Virus record (IMG/VR): IMGVR_UViG_2681813267_000006
Location: 1 to 4,976 of that record
Length of the DNA stretch: 4,976 nt
From: a virus
Taxonomy: Duplodnaviria > Heunggongvirae > Uroviricota > Caudoviricetes
Strand: one strand, 5' to 3'
A model generated the notes under the pieces. The model was given only the letters and a program-made list of their open reading frames with translations. It was not told the origin of the DNA and searched no databases. Position numbers and translations under genes: made by a program. Each line of letters begins with the position of its first letter. The stretch's first letter is position 1. Positions 1-4,976 of this stretch are shown here, one piece after another.

Positions 1-78
1 TAAAAAAAGAACAAATGGTAGTGTCCGCTATTGCCAGTACACCTCAAACAGATGTCTGGAAATATAGGGGCAAATCCA
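1..78 (+). mobile_element. Right terminus of an IS2-family (IS3 family) insertion sequence; the element body lies left of the window
   Basis: The sequence ending at 78 (ACAGATGTCTGGAAATATAGGGGCAAATCCA) matches the IS2 right inverted-repeat terminus as I remember it (outer ~32 bp). Further inward the sequence differs from my memory of IS2, so this is probably a relative rather than IS2 itself. The junction sits inside a holin reading frame. Confidence 0.6.
2..67 (+). CDS. C-terminal end of an IS transposase (OrfB-like), 5'-partial; runs in from the left edge
   Basis: The open frame from the window edge translates ...[12 protein letters not shown] and stops at TAG 65-67. The NRCLEI-stop ending matches the IS2 OrfB C-terminus as remembered. 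The stop lies inside the terminal inverted repeat, as is usual for IS3-family elements. Confidence 0.5.
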
Positions 79-222
79 CTTACGCTTATGACTTCCCAGC
101 ACACCAATCGCAGCCCACTGTGATGGACTGACCTGATCCAACCACTGCAAAAACCAGTAGCCGGCACTGCCGGCGGAGGTGCCGTAGGCAATGCCTGTTG
201 ATATTTTTTCCATCTGATACAT
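79..222 (-). pseudogene. S21-type pinholin (class II holin), 3'-truncated by the IS insertion
   Basis: Minus-strand ORF 28..222 begins [44 protein letters not shown], near-identical to the N-terminal ~44 residues of phage 21 S (dual-start motif, TMD1). After codon Ser (91-93) the frame gives [20 protein letters not shown], which has no similarity to S21 TMD2, and no alternative frame restores it. The break coincides with the IS terminus at 78. A G-rich SD-like stretch (GGGGGGCGGG) precedes the ATG at 220-222. Confidence 0.7.
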
Positions 223-252
223 ATCCCGCCCCCCGACAGACCTGTGCTATCG

Positions 253-288
253 GAAAGAAAAAAGGCCATCAGCAAAACTCTGATGGCC
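253..288 (-). terminator. Rho-independent terminator on the minus strand (tR'-like), just upstream of the holin
   Basis: Minus-strand hairpin GGCCATCAG-agttttg-CTGATGGCC (plus 264-288) followed by TTTTTTCTTTCC (plus 253-263). Confidence 0.6.
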
Positions 289-333
289 TGAATCACCTTT
301 ACCAATATTGTATGAAAAAACACGCACGACTAA

Positions 334-362
334 TTGACAATAATTTTCATTTCCATTAAAAA
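334..362 (+). promoter_or_regulatory. Candidate sigma70 promoter on the plus strand, antisense to the phage late transcript
   Basis: Perfect -35 TTGACA (334-339), 17-bp spacer, -10 TAAAAA (357-362, 4/6 to consensus). It lies about 35 bp upstream of a hairpin plus U-run on the same strand. Confidence 0.3.
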
Positions 363-397
363 AGATCGCGTAGCATTCTTAATTCATGAGGAACTTT

Positions 398-463
398 ACC
401 CGCCAGCAATCTGAGTAGCGAAAGCTGTTCATCCCCAATGTTTTTGCTGGCGGGTCCTTTTTT
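398..463 (+). terminator. Terminator-like structure on the plus strand: 12-bp stem, large structured loop, U-run
   Basis: ACCCGCCAGCAA (398-409) pairs with TTGCTGGCGGGT (444-455); the 34-nt loop contains an AGC-GAAA-GCT mini-hairpin; followed by CCTTTTTTC (456-464). The same inverted repeat would also fold in the minus-strand late transcript, but without a U-run. Confidence 0.35.
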
Positions 464-854
464 CTACGGTCCTCCTCCCCGGAGGGGGGCATTTCATTAT
501 TTTTCTAATCGTTACTGGTGAGAAGGCGGAAGAAAAAGCCAGTTCTTCGCCCCTAAATAACAGCATGATTCCAGTCCATGCAAAATCTGATTTCCAGCTC
601 ACACATACCGAGCGCTGTACAAAAAACCGCCAGCCAAGGCAGTTAAGAGTGTGTTCCCGGGGTTTGCTTAGAATATTTTGTAAGTTGTCCGAAGAGATAT
701 TTACAACACCAGAATGATGAATCATCAGTCCCCTGCCAGAGGTTCACTACGTAACCTGACCGACAATGCACCATTCTGGTGCTGAAAAAAGAGCACTGGA
801 ACTGCAACAAAACAACATCACAGAACAGGAGATGGTAAGGAGTCAGACATTCCC

Positions 855-868
855 ACACAATATTGTGT
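855..868. repeat. Perfect 14-bp palindrome ACACAATATTGTGT, candidate dimeric protein-binding site
   Basis: The sequence is its own reverse complement with no central spacer; it sits 35-48 bp downstream of the 3' end of the tRNA array. No U-run follows, so it is not a terminator. Confidence 0.4.
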
Positions 869-902
869 CAGTGCAAATAACAACCTTCGTCTCAAATCTC
901 GC

Positions 903-977
<75 letters not shown>

Positions 978-980
978 ATA

Positions 981-1056
<76 letters not shown>

Positions 1057-1058
1057 GC

Positions 1059-1135
1059 TGGCCCACCACCGAGGACTCGAACCTCGCACCGTCAACTTAG
1101 AAGGTTGATGCTCTATCCGGATGAGCTAGTGGTGG
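1059..1135 (-). tRNA. tRNA-Arg (anticodon UCU), phage-type
   Basis: Reverse complement CCACCACTAGCTCATCCGGATAGAGCATCAACCTTCTAAGTTGACGGTGCGAGGTTCGAGTCCTCGGTGGTGGGCCA; fully paired acceptor stem beginning with an unusual C1:G72, U8, A14, A20 and C35 (Arg identity elements), anticodon loop CTTCTAA, T-loop TTCGAGT, discriminator G73, encoded CCA. Confidence 0.8.
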
Positions 1136-1136
1136 T

Positions 1137-1213
1137 TGGTGGCCCTTGCTGGACTTGAACCAGCGACCTGGCGATTATGAGTCGCTCGCTCTGACCAACT
1201 GAGCTAAAGGGCC
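1137..1213 (-). tRNA. tRNA with CAU anticodon: Ile2 (lysidine, ileX/ileZ-like) or elongator Met
   Basis: Reverse complement GGCCCTTTAGCTCAGTTGGTCAGAGCGAGCGACTCATAATCGCCAGGTCGCTGGTTCAAGTCCAGCAAGGGCCACCA; the anticodon arm (GCGACTCATAATCGC) resembles E. coli ileX-type tRNA-Ile2 as remembered. Ile versus Met cannot be decided from sequence alone. Confidence 0.85.
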
Positions 1214-1222
1214 GGAGGCAGA

Positions 1223-1251
1223 ATAATAACCATATGTCATCACATCTGCAA
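1223..1251 (-). promoter_or_regulatory. Candidate promoter for the tRNA array
   Basis: Minus strand reads TTGCAG (plus 1246-1251), 17-bp spacer, TATTAT (plus 1223-1228, 5/6 to consensus), then 9 nt to the 5' end of the first tRNA. Confidence 0.35.
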
Positions 1252-1299
1252 ACTCATCTGACCACCAGCACGTTTAACGTCCTGTGCCGTTTTTCAGGT

Positions 1300-1324
1300 A
1301 TAAAAAAACCCGCATAAAGCGGGC
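1300..1324 (-). terminator. Short intrinsic terminator about 75 nt downstream of the Q-position gene
   Basis: Minus strand CCCGC-tttat-GCGGG followed by TTTTTTTA (plus A-run 1301-1308). Its position between the Q-like gene and the downstream tRNAs and lysis gene fits an early terminator of a short pR'-type transcript. Confidence 0.5.
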
Positions 1325-1402
1325 TCTTTCAAATGTCCATGTCTGCTATTCGCCTCGCGGTACAGCTTTGCGAAGCGTACAAGAATTGAAGCAGTTTTTA
1401 CG

Positions 1403-1957
1403 TCAAAAAGCAATAACTTTTTTCTCTATACCAAAAGCCATAACCATTGGTTTGTACAAAATAAATTCTGCCACCTTTAGCCAATGCTCAATGCGTCTTT
1501 CACAGGTTCTTAAACTCCATTTCGGGTGTGCATCATTCAGCAGTTCAGCCATTTTGCGTTTGGTCATCCCCCGCCCCTCATACCGTTGCCGAAGGACGCT
1601 AATCAATCCTGGATGCTCTGCCAGCACCTCACTTATGACCCGATCAATACATAACGCCTCTGCATCAGTACAATGCGCCAGCCAGCTCTTTTGCTTACCG
1701 TTAATCATATCCCGCAAAAAAGCCTCAAGTTCAGACTTGTTCAGACCTGCTTTTTTCATCCTCCGGAGCGCCTCGTTAATTGCCGTTTTTGTCAGCTTTT
1801 TAGAGGTCAACATCAGGTTAAACATATTCCCCGTCTTACCGCCACCAATATACGACCAGCGCCCCCACATACGTAGTTTTCCCTGAATCCAGACACTTTC
1901 CAGCGTGGTGAGACGAAGGTGTTCTCCGCTTTTTCCTGTATTCGTTGGGTAAATCAT
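1403..1957 (-). CDS. 185-aa protein in the late-antiterminator (Q) position; family not recognised
   Basis: ORF MIYPTNTGKSGEHLRL...EKKVIAF. The ATG at 1955-1957 is preceded by GGAGG at 7-nt spacing and overlaps the upstream stop (ATGA). The longer ORF from 2077 would overlap the upstream gene by ~120 nt and was not used. The Q call is positional only (last gene before a terminator, tRNAs and holin); the protein has only 3 Cys and no CxxC pairs, so it is not a lambda/82-type zinc-finger Q. Confidence 0.75.
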   Translation of the reverse strand: MIYPTNTGKSGEHLRLTTLESVWIQGKLRMWGRWSYIGGGKTGNMFNLMLTSKKLTKTAINEALRRMKKAGLNKSELEAFLRDMINGKQKSWLAHCTDAEALCIDRVISEVLAEHPGLISVLRQRYEGRGMTKRKMAELLNDAHPKWSLRTCERRIEHWLKVAEFILYKPMVMAFGIEKKVIAF

Positions 1958-2244
1958 AAATATCCCTCCTTTCTCCAGATTTCTTGTGTGCGAAAAACAC
2001 CTTCTGCATGCATCAGGCGTAATTCTTCTTTGGTGTAATCGCTGGTTTTTACCCGCCCGTCGATTAAATCGTGGCACGAGCTACAGGCAATCGCTGCCTG
2101 CATATCGTGTGGCTTTATCGCTGTTCCGCACGTTCCCGCCAGTCGGTAATGCGCCAGCACAGACGTTTCCGGATCGTGATTGCAGTAGCCAGGAATTCTG
2201 ACGGTGCACATCTGCCCCCGCGCCGCTTTACGTAAATCCACCAT
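1954..2244 (-). CDS. ybcO: YbcO-like DUF1364 phage protein (putative zinc-binding nuclease of the Nin region)
   Basis: 96-aa ORF MVDLRKAARGQMCTVRIPGYCNHDPETSVLAHYRL... with four conserved Cys, resembling DLP12 YbcO as remembered. Its start overlaps the upstream stop (TAATG) and its stop overlaps the downstream start (ATGA). Confidence 0.8.
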   Translation of the reverse strand: MVDLRKAARGQMCTVRIPGYCNHDPETSVLAHYRLAGTCGTAIKPHDMQAAIACSSCHDLIDGRVKTSDYTKEELRLMHAEGVFRTQEIWRKEGYL

Positions 2245-2843
2245 TACGCAAACTCCAGCAGCTGCGCGGCCACATTTTCGACTTGTTCCGGAGAGGAAAA
2301 TTTACGGAACAGAATCCAGTTCCACAGCACATTCAGAACAGATTTATAAACCTGCTGAAACTCGGTTTCGTCCATATTCGCAAAAGCGATGGATTTTGCC
2401 CGACGCCCGCGGCTACCGTCCGGATAAAAATGTTCGGTGTAAAATCCAGCCTGAATGGTTACCCACTCGCGAAAAGCCTCAAACGACTTTAGCAATGCCG
2501 TATCCCGGGTTCTGCGTGTCGCAACTGTATTCAGATATTGCTCTGCGGCTTCGCTCAGAGCTGGCGTATGTTCCCGACCTACTGATTCGCACAGGTAATC
2601 AACGAAACCAGACAGCAGTTCTCGTTCGCGAGGCGTGATCGCCCCACCGACCGGAGTCCAGTAATCGAAACCCAGTTGCAGGAGTTTGAAAAAACGCTTG
2701 TGGAATGCGTAGTTACACACACGCTTAAAGTCTGCGTGTATCCACTCACCTATTTTGATTTGATGCAGAAAATCGCAACTCTCCGGCGTCGCCGGGAGAA
2801 GTAATCCGGAAGAGGTTTGTTTGACCAGTTGTATATGTGCCAT
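2244..2843 (-). CDS. Conserved lambdoid Nin-region protein (~199 aa), possibly YbcN-like; function unknown
   Basis: ORF from ATG 2841-2843 (MAHIQLVKQTSSGLLLPATPE...AAQLLEFA), with GGAG about 10 nt upstream. The longer ORF from 2885 has no ribosome-binding site. It is translationally coupled to the ybcO-like gene. The family assignment is tentative and from memory only. Confidence 0.75.
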   Translation of the reverse strand: MAHIQLVKQTSSGLLLPATPESCDFLHQIKIGEWIHADFKRVCNYAFHKRFFKLLQLGFDYWTPVGGAITPRERELLSGFVDYLCESVGREHTPALSEAAEQYLNTVATRRTRDTALLKSFEAFREWVTIQAGFYTEHFYPDGSRGRRAKSIAFANMDETEFQQVYKSVLNVLWNWILFRKFSSPEQVENVAAQLLEFA

Positions 2844-2881
2844 CGGCTTTCTCCGGTGGCACGGTGTTACACAGCAGGAGT

Positions 2882-3169
2882 TCAATCCTGCTCAAGATTG
2901 TAGATGAGTTTATTCTTCAGCAAAAGCAGAAAACCAGCCTTAAAACCAATCTCTTTCAAAACCCGTAATGATGTGACAAATTCGTCCTCACGCAAAATAA
3001 AACCGTCCGTCAGAAGTCCATTACAAAAATAAAATAACACAGCACCGCTCTTCCTTTGTTGAGATTGCAAACATCTAATGCGGCAATGGCTGACAATCGC
3101 TCCATTCTCAACGCGCACAGCATAGAGGCCATTTTCACTAAAAATTTCACGCAATTCTTCGATTTTCAT
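2882..3169 (-). CDS. Hypothetical 95-aa protein
   Basis: ORF MKIEELREIFSENGLYAVRVENGAIVSHCRIRCLQ...; GGAAGGA about 8 nt upstream of the ATG at 3167-3169; own promoter-like element upstream; lies just downstream of the hok terminator. No recognisable family. Confidence 0.55.
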   Translation of the reverse strand: MKIEELREIFSENGLYAVRVENGAIVSHCRIRCLQSQQRKSGAVLFYFCNGLLTDGFILREDEFVTSLRVLKEIGFKAGFLLLLKNKLIYNLEQD

Positions 3170-3250
3170 CTTCAGAATCCTTCCAGATAAATAGCTCTCC
3201 CCTGTTCGGGGTCCATCCCTCTTCTCCCTGCGCGCTACTTAAGTGAGTCG

Positions 3251-3278
3251 ATTCTATCTGCGAAGGTGCGCGAATCAA
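3251..3278 (-). promoter_or_regulatory. Candidate promoter for the 95-aa ORF
   Basis: Minus strand TTGATT (plus 3273-3278), 16-bp spacer, TAGAAT (plus 3251-3256). These are the same hexamers as the predicted hok promoter. Confidence 0.4.
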
Positions 3279-3287
3279 ATTCACCGG

Positions 3288-3343
3288 AAATAAACAACAA
3301 AAAACCCGCCGAAACGCTGAGAGATCACAGCGATGGGCGGGTT
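3288..3343 (-). terminator. Rho-independent terminator ending the hok transcript
   Basis: Minus strand AACCCGCC ... GGCGGGTT with an internal CGCTG/CAGCG sub-stem, followed by TTTTTTGTTGTTT (plus A-run 3290-3304). Confidence 0.6.
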
Positions 3344-3418
3344 AAGTGCGGGTGCGTTGAGGATGCCTGACACATCAGAGGTGGGCGGGGATGGGATCAG
3401 CTCCCCGCCCGGTCACTC

Positions 3419-3574
3419 TTACTTCCTGGATTCGTAGTCTACGAAGACAGCGACCTCCGTCTGGCCGGTTCGGATTCGTACCTCACAGAGGTCTTTCCTC
3501 GTTACCAGTGCCGTCACTATGACGGTTAAACAGATGACGATCAGGGCGATTAACATCGCCTTTTGCTGCTTCAT
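3419..3574 (-). CDS. hok: Hok/Gef-family type I toxin (51 aa)
   Basis: MKQQKAMLIALIVICLTVIVTALVTRKDLCEVRIRTGQTEVAVFVDYESRK: single transmembrane helix plus conserved C-terminal motif, nearly identical to HokD/HokC as remembered except at the extreme C-terminus. AAGGAG lies about 9 nt upstream of the ATG. Confidence 0.9.
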   Translation of the reverse strand: MKQQKAMLIALIVICLTVIVTALVTRKDLCEVRIRTGQTEVAVFVDYESRK

Positions 3575-3631
3575 AGCCTGCTTCTCCTTGCCTTTCGGCA
3601 TGTAAGAGGCTAACCTACATGTGCAAAGCAT
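3419..3631 (-). CDS. mok: mok-like overlapping reading frame (in-frame N-terminal extension of hok, 70 aa)
   Basis: The in-frame upstream ATG at 3629-3631 gives MLCTCRLASYMPKGKEKQA + Hok, the same arrangement as MokC/HokC. Confidence 0.55.
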   Translation of the reverse strand: MLCTCRLASYMPKGKEKQAMKQQKAMLIALIVICLTVIVTALVTRKDLCEVRIRTGQTEVAVFVDYESRK

Positions 3632-3685
3632 GAAATTGGCCTCAGATTAATGTTAAGCGTCTTGCCGGACGCGTAATGTTAACTG
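3623..3685 (+). ncRNA. sok: Predicted Sok-type antisense RNA (coordinates approximate)
   Basis: Expected from hok/sok architecture. Candidate plus-strand promoter TTGCCT (3588-3593), 17-bp spacer, TAACCT (3611-3616); hairpin GCGTC-ttgccg-GACGC (3657-3672) followed by GTAATGTT. The transcript would be complementary to the mok start region. The promoter match is weak. Confidence 0.25.
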
Positions 3686-3750
3686 GGGCTTTTCTCTATC
3701 TGCCTTTTGGTGTTCATGCCTGAAGCAGATAGCCTCAAGCACCCGCAGTC

Positions 3751-3780
3751 ATTCTACTTACCTCGCCAATATGAAATCAA
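3751..3780 (-). promoter_or_regulatory. Candidate hok/mok promoter
   Basis: Minus strand TTGATT (plus 3775-3780), 18-bp spacer, TAGAAT (plus 3751-3756). The predicted transcript 5' end near 3745 carries UGCGGGUGC, which is complementary to GCACCCGCA (plus 3347-3355) just upstream of the terminator, resembling the 5'/3' pairing of hok mRNAs. Confidence 0.35.
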
Positions 3781-3801
3781 TCAGAAAGGTGCCCCATAAA
3801 A

Positions 3802-4488
3802 TCACTCCTTCTCTTCTTTACCGTAGTGGAGTTGACCAATTTTGATAAGAGGGCGTCCCTGAGATTTGCGGTGTAGATTGGTATCGCGCAGAGAATACAC
3901 ACAGCCACAATATTCCTGCTGATAGAATTTTTCGCGCTTGCTGATTTCAATCATACGGGACGAGCCGCCCTGCTTGCGCCAGTTATAATCCCAGTACACC
4001 ATGCCCGGATAATGCGCGACGGCTCGCCGCCCACAGTCGTTAACCTGCTGCATATTTTTCCAGCGTGAAATGCCCAGTGAACTGCTGATCACACTGAAAC
4101 CATTTTCAGCGGCGTACAGCGCTGTCCGCTCAAAACGCATGTCAAAACACATGGTGCAACGGATCCCTCGTTCGGGCTCCCATTCCATTCCTTTGGCTCG
4201 TTCAAACCAGTTGTCTGTGTCGTAATCAGCATCAATAAACGGCACGCCGTGTTGTTCAGCAAAGCGAATATTCTCATCCTTACGAATTAAATACTCTTTC
4301 TGAGGATGAATGTTCGGGTTGTAGAAAAAGATGGTGTAGTCGATTCCCGAGGCCTGAAGCGCCTCCATCACCTCACCGGAACATGGAGCACAGCAAGAGT
4401 GCAGTAGTAGTTTGTTTGCCCCGTTTGGGAGCTCCAATTTGGGCCGTTTGAAATCAGCAACTGTCATAAATATGTTTATTGGGGTCAT
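3802..4488 (-). CDS. queH: QueH-type epoxyqueuosine reductase homologue (DUF208 family), 228 aa
   Basis: ORF contains the family hallmarks [18 protein letters not shown], RCxMCFxMR and YCGCVYS. The start is uncertain: ATG 4486-4488 or ATG 4465-4467, neither with a strong SD. Confidence 0.8.
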
Positions 4489-4635
4489 AAAAATATCAAA
4501 GAGTGTAGCATTAGAACGGGGCTATCGGAAACAGATGTGTGACTGCTCCCCGCCCTTTCGGGTGGTCTCCTGATGATTTGAGGGTGCAGAAATCCCTCCG
4601 GTTAAGGATTAAATTTTTAACAGTGCTAAATTTAA

Positions 4636-4976
4636 TTATTCAGTTCTGGATTTTGTCGCCCTGCGTATCCGCGCTTTCGCGTTACGCTCAATCTGTATCA
4701 GCTTTTCTATATTTCTCCGCCTTTCCTGTTCCTCCTGGCGCAATAGCCTTACATCATCTGCCAGTCTGGTTTCTCTTTTTGCCACAGAGAGCATCCAGTC
4801 AAACGGCTCCACAACCGCACCGCAGATTTTACAGCGGACCTGACGCTCTTTTTCGTCAACCCGGACAGAGGCGTGATGGCAATATGGTCTTTCCGATGGT
4901 TCATAAAGAAAATTAACCTGATTACGTGGGTCATCCTCTTTTACCGGAAATAAAACGATATTGCTTAACTCATCTT
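4636..4976 (-). CDS. 3' end of an unidentified protein (5'-partial; start lies right of the window)
   Basis: The minus-strand frame is open for 112 codons from the window edge to TAA (4636-4638): DELSNIVLFPVKEDDPRNQVNFLYEPSERPYCHHASVRVDEKERQVRCKICGAVVEPFDWMLSVAKRETRLADDVRLLRQEEQERRRNIEKLIQIERNAKARIRRATKSRTE. Protein-like composition with a C-HH...C-x2-C motif and a basic, probably helical tail. The provided ORF track omits it because it has no in-window start. Confidence 0.55.
   Translation of the reverse strand, partial: DELSNIVLFPVKEDDPRNQVNFLYEPSERPYCHHASVRVDEKERQVRCKICGAVVEPFDWMLSVAKRETRLADDVRLLRQEEQERRRNIEKLIQIERNAKARIRRATKSRTE

Follow-up and report, generated by a model that had tools for sequence, protein, structure and literature searches.

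The last step in the formation of queuosine (Q) in tRNA, the reduction of epoxyqueuosine (oQ) to Q, is served by two non-homologous enzymes, QueG, which depends on cobalamin (vitamin B12), and QueH, which depends on iron. Members of the QueH family bind a [4Fe-4S] cluster together with an adjacent iron and contain no cobalamin; the family was reportedly defined by Zallot et al. in 2017, in whose work Acinetobacter baylyi ADP1 is also said to have both QueG and QueH. The subject of the present work is a queH gene on a stretch of viral DNA of 4,976 nucleotides (IMG/VR record IMGVR_UViG_2681813267_000006, positions 1 to 4,976; Caudoviricetes), hereafter the window. The ligand residues of the family are present in the sequence of its product, and the gene recurs on prophages and plasmids of species that already possess QueG.

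In Escherichia coli, which makes both oQ and Q, and in Salmonella, the conversion of oQ to Q is cobalamin-dependent, and knockouts of queG in strain K-12 accumulate oQ (PMC4646009, citing Frey 1988 and Miles 2011). Staphylococcus aureus carries QueG and QueH side by side, with a distinct expression of the two that has been attributed to cofactor availability (PMC13443448). The present case is alike in that one step is covered by two non-homologous enzymes, one B12-dependent and one Fe-dependent. In S. aureus, however, both genes are chromosomal and species-wide, whereas the second enzyme of the present case varies between strains (18% of E. coli) and is delivered by phages and plasmids.

With the QueH of Thermotoga maritima (PDB 7LC5, 7LC7 and 9DEU) the window protein shares the same Pfam family over its full length, the fold, the cysteines of the CC..(C/D), C..C and C.C motifs and the NPNI.P..EY motif. 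The two are about 30% identical; the window protein has a cysteine where that of T. maritima has Asp13, and an extra basic C-terminal tail of about 25 residues, and its gene is prophage-borne rather than chromosomal. Much closer are the chromosomal QueH proteins of other Enterobacterales, the nearest relatives found, which are of the same length and 80-87% identical; in those organisms, queH stands in core-gene settings, in contrast to the lambdoid nin region of a QueG-bearing host seen here. Genes of the Q pathway are also known from phages that make 7-deazaguanine bases (FolE, QueC/D/E and DpdA, as in phage 9g). In that case, preQ0-derived bases are destined for phage DNA via DpdA, whereas QueH acts after insertion of the base into tRNA.

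Identity and extent of the prophage QueH

The gene is contained within an open reading frame (ORF) of 228 aa which spans 3802..4488 on the minus strand in the ORF list of the window. A preliminary description of this DNA had taken the whole of that interval as the gene and left the strand unstated; the ORF is real, but the seven extra N-terminal codons are not conserved. Seven sister alleles were compared in order to judge the start codon. In allele L007 the seven upstream codons are interrupted by an in-frame stop, and an ATG at the position of the first one (4488) is missing from L008 and L010, which are plasmid alleles; the second ATG (4467), on the other hand, is found in every allele compared. 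Since only the second ATG is kept across alleles, the start is placed at 4467, and the true coding sequence (CDS) is most likely the following, with which the RefSeq annotation of a 221-aa CDS (WP_012421537.1) agrees:

3802..4467, minus strand: queH CDS, 221 aa plus stop, predicted B12-independent epoxyqueuosine reductase (ORF, PF02677, T. maritima QueH match, fold, allele comparison, RefSeq)

The identification of this protein as QueH, which the preliminary description had made from its motifs and for which it had proposed a profile search, is highly probable, and its membership of the family is firm. That search matches PF02677 (QueH/DUF208) at 220.6 bits, where the cut-off is 23.5 (E 1.9e-65), with an alignment that runs from end to end (protein residues 27-201, profile positions 1-174 of 175); in addition, PHROG 3217 is matched at 459.7 bits, and a sequence search of the PDB returns T. 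maritima QueH (7lc5) at E 5e-22. The motifs CCAP, N.NI.P..EY..R, RC..C and YCGC, the last in the form YCGCVYS, are all present in the window protein and are invariant in family members at 31-49% identity and in T. maritima QueH; indeed, the catalytic and cysteine motifs are kept in 119-120 of the 120 close homologs. The AlphaFold2 model (pLDDT 77.7, pTM 0.80) leads to the same place. All of the top five Foldseek matches in the PDB are T. maritima QueH (E ~1e-10, target-normalised TM 0.81-0.84, rmsd 2.7-3.0 Å), and the next fold class, the TtuA/LarE adenine-nucleotide alpha-hydrolases, appears only at E 2e-4, six orders of magnitude worse. The enzymatic activity, the metal content and the independence from cobalamin would then follow from family membership.

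A concern that the CCAPC of the window protein departs from the CCAPD of T. maritima QueH, for which a D13N mutant has been crystallised, was considered and rejected, as the cysteine is the norm of the family and T. maritima the exception.

The basic C-terminal tail (residues ~197-221, window positions 3802-3880) is a conserved feature of enterobacterial QueH that is absent from T. maritima QueH. Within it, R200, R205, I208, G211 and Y215 are invariant in a 35-sequence alignment. It may be a tRNA-binding extension.

Selection, distribution and upstream signals

Pairwise dN/dS values (Nei-Gojobori) among prophage, phage and plasmid alleles lie between 0.02 and 0.08, over synonymous divergences that extend from 0.09 to saturation (dS up to >1). 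Mobile queH is under strong purifying selection, the mark of a gene that is kept functional over long periods. That selection is equally strong on plasmids without phage genes, and carriage on such plasmids counts for a role of queH independent of phage functions.

An intact copy (at least 80% of the gene at 90-100% nucleotide identity) is present in 985 of 5426 complete E. coli genomes (~18%), nearly always on the chromosome, and full length is retained in 985 of the 995 E. coli copies. queG was found in all 5426 genomes, and QueH is therefore always a second enzyme for the same step in E. coli. The count also upholds the use of cobalamin-dependent QueG by E. coli, as the preliminary description had it. 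Its wider statement that enterobacteria normally use QueG is too broad: it holds for E. coli, to which the queG count is confined, and not for the whole order, in which chromosomal QueH is widespread. Indeed, QueH in a housekeeping chromosomal context, at 80-86% identity to the window protein, occurs in Erwinia, Providencia, Proteus, Photorhabdus, Pantoea, Pectobacterium, Dickeya, Klebsiella aerogenes, Cronobacter and others. The Providencia gene adjoins tmcA/purC and that of Erwinia lies between purL and glrK-glnB-hmp-glyA, both of them core chromosomal settings.

Beyond chromosomes, queH is on 188 IMG/VR viral contigs and in the isolated temperate Escherichia phage HannyBb, in which it is annotated as hypothetical (L003 8001-8687). 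A tblastn search places QueH on 302 plasmids, 99 of them from Klebsiella and 67 from Escherichia, with 136 predicted to be conjugative. On the IncFII/IncR and IncFIA/IncR plasmids of Klebsiella, queH stands by itself as an accessory gene, and its surroundings hold no phage genes. The same 221-aa protein is the RefSeq entry MULTISPECIES QueH [Enterobacteriaceae], present on at least 1000 contigs, Shigella sonnei among them.

Some apparent carriers were set aside. The record 'Acinetobacter phage MD-2021a' (L005, CAKLQH020000001.1, 328 kb), which has a QueH 78% identical to that of the window, is a fragment of a bacterial chromosome; it holds soxR, cynX, tadA and regulators of the gntR and lysR types, and its QueH is chromosomal. 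Neither 'UNVERIFIED Bacteriophage sp.' nor Staphylococcus and Listeria phage records were counted as phage carriage, being unannotated and unverified and in several instances resembling bacterial DNA; the unverified phage records served only as diverse QueH sequences. About 57 further plasmid matches in E. coli, obtained with a more sensitive search, are short pseudogene remnants of QueH and not intact genes, for instance 156 nt at ~73% nucleotide identity on plasmid pWL1467 of E. coli O103 (L103 2317-2472). Such remnants are found on virulence plasmids of the enterohaemorrhagic E. coli (EHEC) type, beside fragments of kinase effectors and remnants of transposases, and look like an older plasmid-borne acquisition that has decayed.

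Three elements lie upstream of the gene in the window:

4468..4479, minus strand: ATAAACATATTT, conserved AT-rich leader with no Shine-Dalgarno sequence, directly before the ATG; putative role in translation initiation
4502..4510, minus strand: TGCTACACT, extended -10-like element (TGnTAnAnT) 35 nt upstream of the ATG; putative native promoter, from its positional conservation
4548..4565, minus strand: short GC-rich stem capped by a GAAA loop, farther upstream than the promoter-like element (dG -8.6, z -0.85 against shuffles); probably not significant

The genomic context of queH was surveyed in 86 phage and prophage loci, made up of 80 from IMG/VR, five annotated loci and the window, and in 85 of these a motif of the TGCTACACT type stands at the same distance from the gene. 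Of the plasmid alleles, L008 has TGCTACACT and L010 has TGCTAAAAT at the same place, although the flanks of L010 have otherwise diverged. The ~60 nt that precede the start codon are conserved in an upstream alignment of the prophage alleles with the Klebsiella plasmid allele L008. Both signals recur in L100, the chromosomal queH locus of Erwinia, in which TGCTACACT stands at -40 and the AT-rich leader (ATAAACGTATTT / ATAAACRTATTT) resembles that of the window; the leader is also found in other mobile alleles. Taken together, this pattern suggests that element and leader are a native promoter and leader captured along with queH, such that the gene could be expressed independently of the phage circuit.

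Other candidate signals are more variable. A strong hairpin, TGTCTGCTTTG...CAAAAGCAGACA (dG -16.5, z -3.96; L002 ~10500-10545), precedes the promoter-like segment in L002 and also in L003, L006, L008 and L010. It occurs in most prophage and plasmid alleles, and the window has unrelated sequence in its place. It may act as an upstream terminator or insulator or as an operator, or may mark a boundary of the captured segment. Downstream of the stop codon, hairpins are present in alleles L003, L007 and L010, and the same region of the window folds no better than its shuffles (z +0.68). In the window, an Rfam search of the region upstream of queH found no regulatory RNA, B12 riboswitches included.

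The lambdoid locus and its neighbours

A Rac-like lambdoid prophage holds queH in its nin region. By Pfam and PHROGs the flanks in the window are lambdoid (Q-like antiterminator, NinB, YbcO and a P21-type holin), and a locus 99.4% identical in E. coli FDAARGOS_944 forms part of a lambdoid prophage that is complete, its genes including those for integrase, repressor, lysis and tail as well as Rac-like replication genes; the carriage of QueH by a prophage, as first proposed from the window, is thereby established. In 71 of 78 assessable loci queH follows a DUF977 (ydaW-like) gene at the end of the replication module. The related prophages H3-H8 are without queH and match just 59-71% of the window. 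The features of the locus outside queH are these:

903..1213, minus strand: phage tRNA array, CAT (Ile2/Met), Arg-TCT, Thr-TGT and Gly-TCC (ARAGORN, Rfam tRNA matches)
1403..1957, minus strand: Q-like late antiterminator (DUF1133), marking the end of the nin region (Pfam DUF1133 at 355.8 bits, Phage_antitermQ, PHROG 753, RefSeq)
3419..3574, minus strand: hok-family toxin gene (hokD-like), a neighbour outside the QueH unit (HOK_GEF at 79.9 bits, RefSeq hokD)
3569..3744, minus strand: hok/sok regulatory RNA (Rfam RF01794 sok, 117 bits)
3780..3751, minus strand: hok/sok promoter-like TTGATT-18-TAGAAT, directly after the queH stop codon (promoter scan)

As a non-phage gene that is variably present between conserved phage modules, queH fits the description of a moron. 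With lambdoid morons and lysogenic-conversion genes it has in common that a single gene of this kind stands between modules with an apparent promoter of its own; it differs in that no terminator follows it in the window, its base composition is that of the flanks (the GC content of queH is 0.49-0.51, with no difference from them) and its expression in the lysogen is putative.

The adjacency of hok to queH, also reported in the preliminary description, is evident in the window from the HOK_GEF match and from the sok RNA immediately downstream, and is frequent without being obligatory, with hok directly following queH in 65 of 81 assessable loci. In the Z1832 prophage of O157:H7 (L006 7872-9882) the hok/sok slot is taken by a DNA cytosine methyltransferase and a restriction endonuclease of the NgoMIV family, and in strain 200177 a DUF1971 gene replaces hok after queH. 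The tRNA array is no more constant. Of the 49 loci that could be assessed for it, only 33 have one or more tRNAs downstream of queH. The arrays are of at least five kinds (CAT-Arg-Thr-Gly, Thr-Gly, CAT-Arg(TCG)-Arg(TCT), CAT-Lys-Thr-Gly and CAT-Arg-Thr), and phage HannyBb, the O157:H7 prophage and the Klebsiella plasmid copies have queH with no array at all. In other words, queH keeps its place in a cargo slot while the genes downstream of it change, and it can do without hok as well as without the tRNA array.

It was correctly observed at the outset that no tRNA in the window is a substrate for Q, as none of the four has a GUN anticodon (G34-U35-N36). The same is true of all 124 tRNAs across the surveyed loci (0/124). 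The suggestion that accompanied it, that QueH acts together with the phage tRNA array, is not borne out, given that arrays are variable or absent, that they hold no Q-substrate tRNA and that plasmid copies do without them; no functional link between array and QueH was found in the 86-locus survey. The proximity of the two is given by the lambdoid architecture, in which the nin region adjoins the Q-S interval.

Several further observations were made on this locus. The CAT tRNA is called Met by ARAGORN and tRNA-Ile (lysidine type) by RefSeq, and all four tRNAs of the array serve codons used rarely in E. coli (AUA, AGA, ACA and GGA). Between hok and ninB, an ORF of 95 aa at 2882-3169 (minus strand) is matched by no Pfam or NCBIfam model, only by phrog_340 (unknown function), and is hypothetical in RefSeq. 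The interval from the tRNA array to the holin gene (223-902, ~680 nt) contains no convincing ORF and may hold only the late promoter and a terminator region; in Stx phages, the toxin genes occupy the corresponding Q-to-S interval. The position downstream of queH is, from the restriction-modification (R-M) replacement in O157:H7, a variable hotspot for cargo or defence genes. Near the lysis genes, the same prophage family carries other host-type cargo, namely a DedA-family membrane protein in FDAARGOS_944 (L001 18353-18865) and a TrkG potassium transporter in the APEC O1 prophage (L002 2458-3915).

A proposed role for mobile QueH

The explanation which on balance we consider the probable one is that the locus encodes a functional QueH, expressed from its own signals, that serves as a B12-independent backup for host tRNAs. 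The protein would be an Fe-S, cobalamin-independent enzyme converting oQ34 to Q34 in the tRNA-Asp, -Asn, -His and -Tyr of the host. Its gene would derive from the housekeeping queH of other, Erwinia-like Enterobacterales, captured together with its promoter-like element and leader, and would now ride as a moron-like unit at the end of the replication module of Rac-like lambdoid phages, as well as on IncF/IncR plasmids. E. coli has no de novo synthesis of cobalamin. Its QueG needs imported cobamide, and the most likely effect of a mobile QueH would be to free the maturation of Q from the B12 supply in a lysogen. The gene would then be a lysogenic-conversion or backup function that helps the host cell, a phage-specific decoding device tied to the tRNA array being unlikely. 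Within this explanation the physiological role as a B12-independent backup is finely poised, though reasonable and in keeping with the whole of the comparative evidence. Expression in the lysogen from the gene's own promoter and a fitness benefit under B12 limitation are likewise suppositions, the benefit being plausible in that purifying selection and repeated mobilisation are consistent with it.

Several observations weigh against this explanation. We know of no phenotype or decoding difference that sets oQ-tRNA apart from Q-tRNA, such that a selective benefit is hard to specify, and E. coli in the gut usually has corrinoids at hand. With respect to identity, no model of the NCBIfam library matches the window protein, although RefSeq names it QueH. 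With respect to expression, a consensus scan, which requires a -35 hexamer, gave no sigma-70 promoter upstream of queH in the window; a degenerate 9-nt motif such as the -10-like element is expected by chance a few times per window, so that its weight rests only on positional conservation; and between queH and hok the scan of the window found nothing that resembles a terminator. The gene could thus be expressed by read-through from the early-right operon of the phage, mainly on induction.

In a phage-centred alternative, lytic expression of queH from the early-right operon, together with the tRNA array, would optimise the decoding of NAU/NAC codons in phage mRNAs. In its favour, queH and the delayed-early nin genes share a strand and the window shows no terminator to either side of queH, arrays do follow it in 33 of the 49 assessable loci, and by analogy, Q levels rise during infection of Shewanella by a phage, a rise that has been linked to the codon use of late genes (review PMC13191261). 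Against this, the arrays are inconstant (at least five compositions, and none in HannyBb and O157:H7 Z1832), their tRNAs (0/124) are not Q substrates, and the same gene with its upstream element is found on non-phage plasmids and chromosomes under equally strong purifying selection. Moreover, a lytic cycle of tens of minutes leaves little scope for an enzyme of the last step while the QueA and Tgt of the host are unchanged, and we know of no effect on decoding of the difference between oQ and Q. We consider tuning of this kind quite unlikely. It is also unlikely that queH is a neutral passenger, of no present benefit in E. coli and persisting through linkage to the hok/sok addiction module and to successful prophages. 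The redundancy of QueH with QueG in every genome, the presence of hok/sok after queH in 65 of 81 loci and the decaying fragments on EHEC-type plasmids, which show that the gene can be lost, would all sit well with a passenger. The dN/dS of 0.02-0.08 across alleles whose synonymous divergence reaches saturation would not, nor would the integrity of 985 of 995 copies and of the catalytic motifs in 119-120 of 120 close homologs, nor the persistence of queH where hok is lacking, beside R-M or DUF1971 genes and on plasmids.

A different target for the enzyme is highly improbable, be it a 7-deazaguanine in phage DNA or a part in defence or counter-defence against anticodon nucleases or tRNases of the colicin E5 type that cut at Q34. 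It is true that phages use enzymes of the Q pathway for DNA modification (PMC6884629), that QueC-like proteins reportedly occur in defence systems (PMC13639016), and that an R-M system follows queH in some prophages. The FDAARGOS_944 prophage, however, is without a DpdA/TGT-like transglycosylase, preQ0 synthesis or QueC/D/E genes, the DNA-modifying viruses analysed by Hutinet et al. 2019 have no QueA, QueG or QueH (PMC6884629), and PADLOC returns no defence match at the window; the protein itself keeps an identity of 80-86% to housekeeping QueH and shows no acceleration in its evolution.

The identity of the protein is not new, as RefSeq names the exact protein 'epoxyqueuosine reductase QueH'. 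On the phage side there is an annotation gap despite Pfam and RefSeq: PHROGs v4 lists phrog_3217 as 'unknown function', which is why phage annotators call QueH hypothetical. In the searchable literature no discussion was found of QueH on prophages or plasmids of QueG-bearing Enterobacteriaceae. Literature matches to QueH with prophage proved to be the author names Quehenberger and Quehl, and 'DUF208' in a paper on Fido a prefix match to duf2087/duf2089; these were discarded.

What emerges is that temperate phages carry a tRNA-modification enzyme of the Q pathway, as compared with a 2019 survey in which the analysed viruses were without QueA, QueG or QueH homologs (PMC6884629). The importance of a B12 backup hinges on a putative phenotype that distinguishes oQ from Q. 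A bolder and rather improbable form of the idea is that mobile QueH is a selected module of cofactor independence, which uncouples the maturation of Q-tRNA from the BtuB-dependent uptake of cobamide. If this were so, the tRNA of lysogens and plasmid hosts would stay fully modified where B12 is scarce (urine, blood, aerobic surfaces or plants, for instance), and would do so even if BtuB, the receptor for E colicins and BF23-type phages, were lost or repressed. The difference between oQ and Q would then have a real and so far unrecognised consequence for fitness, and QueH would be the first last-step enzyme of tRNA anticodon modification shown to be spread by temperate phages as a lysogenic conversion. 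More generally, the mobilisation of queH onto prophages and conjugative plasmids of species that bear QueG, together with purifying selection, hints that a B12-free route from oQ to Q matters in nature, and QueH-positive and QueH-negative isolates of E. coli offer a natural system in which the effect of B12 on the tRNA epitranscriptome may be followed.

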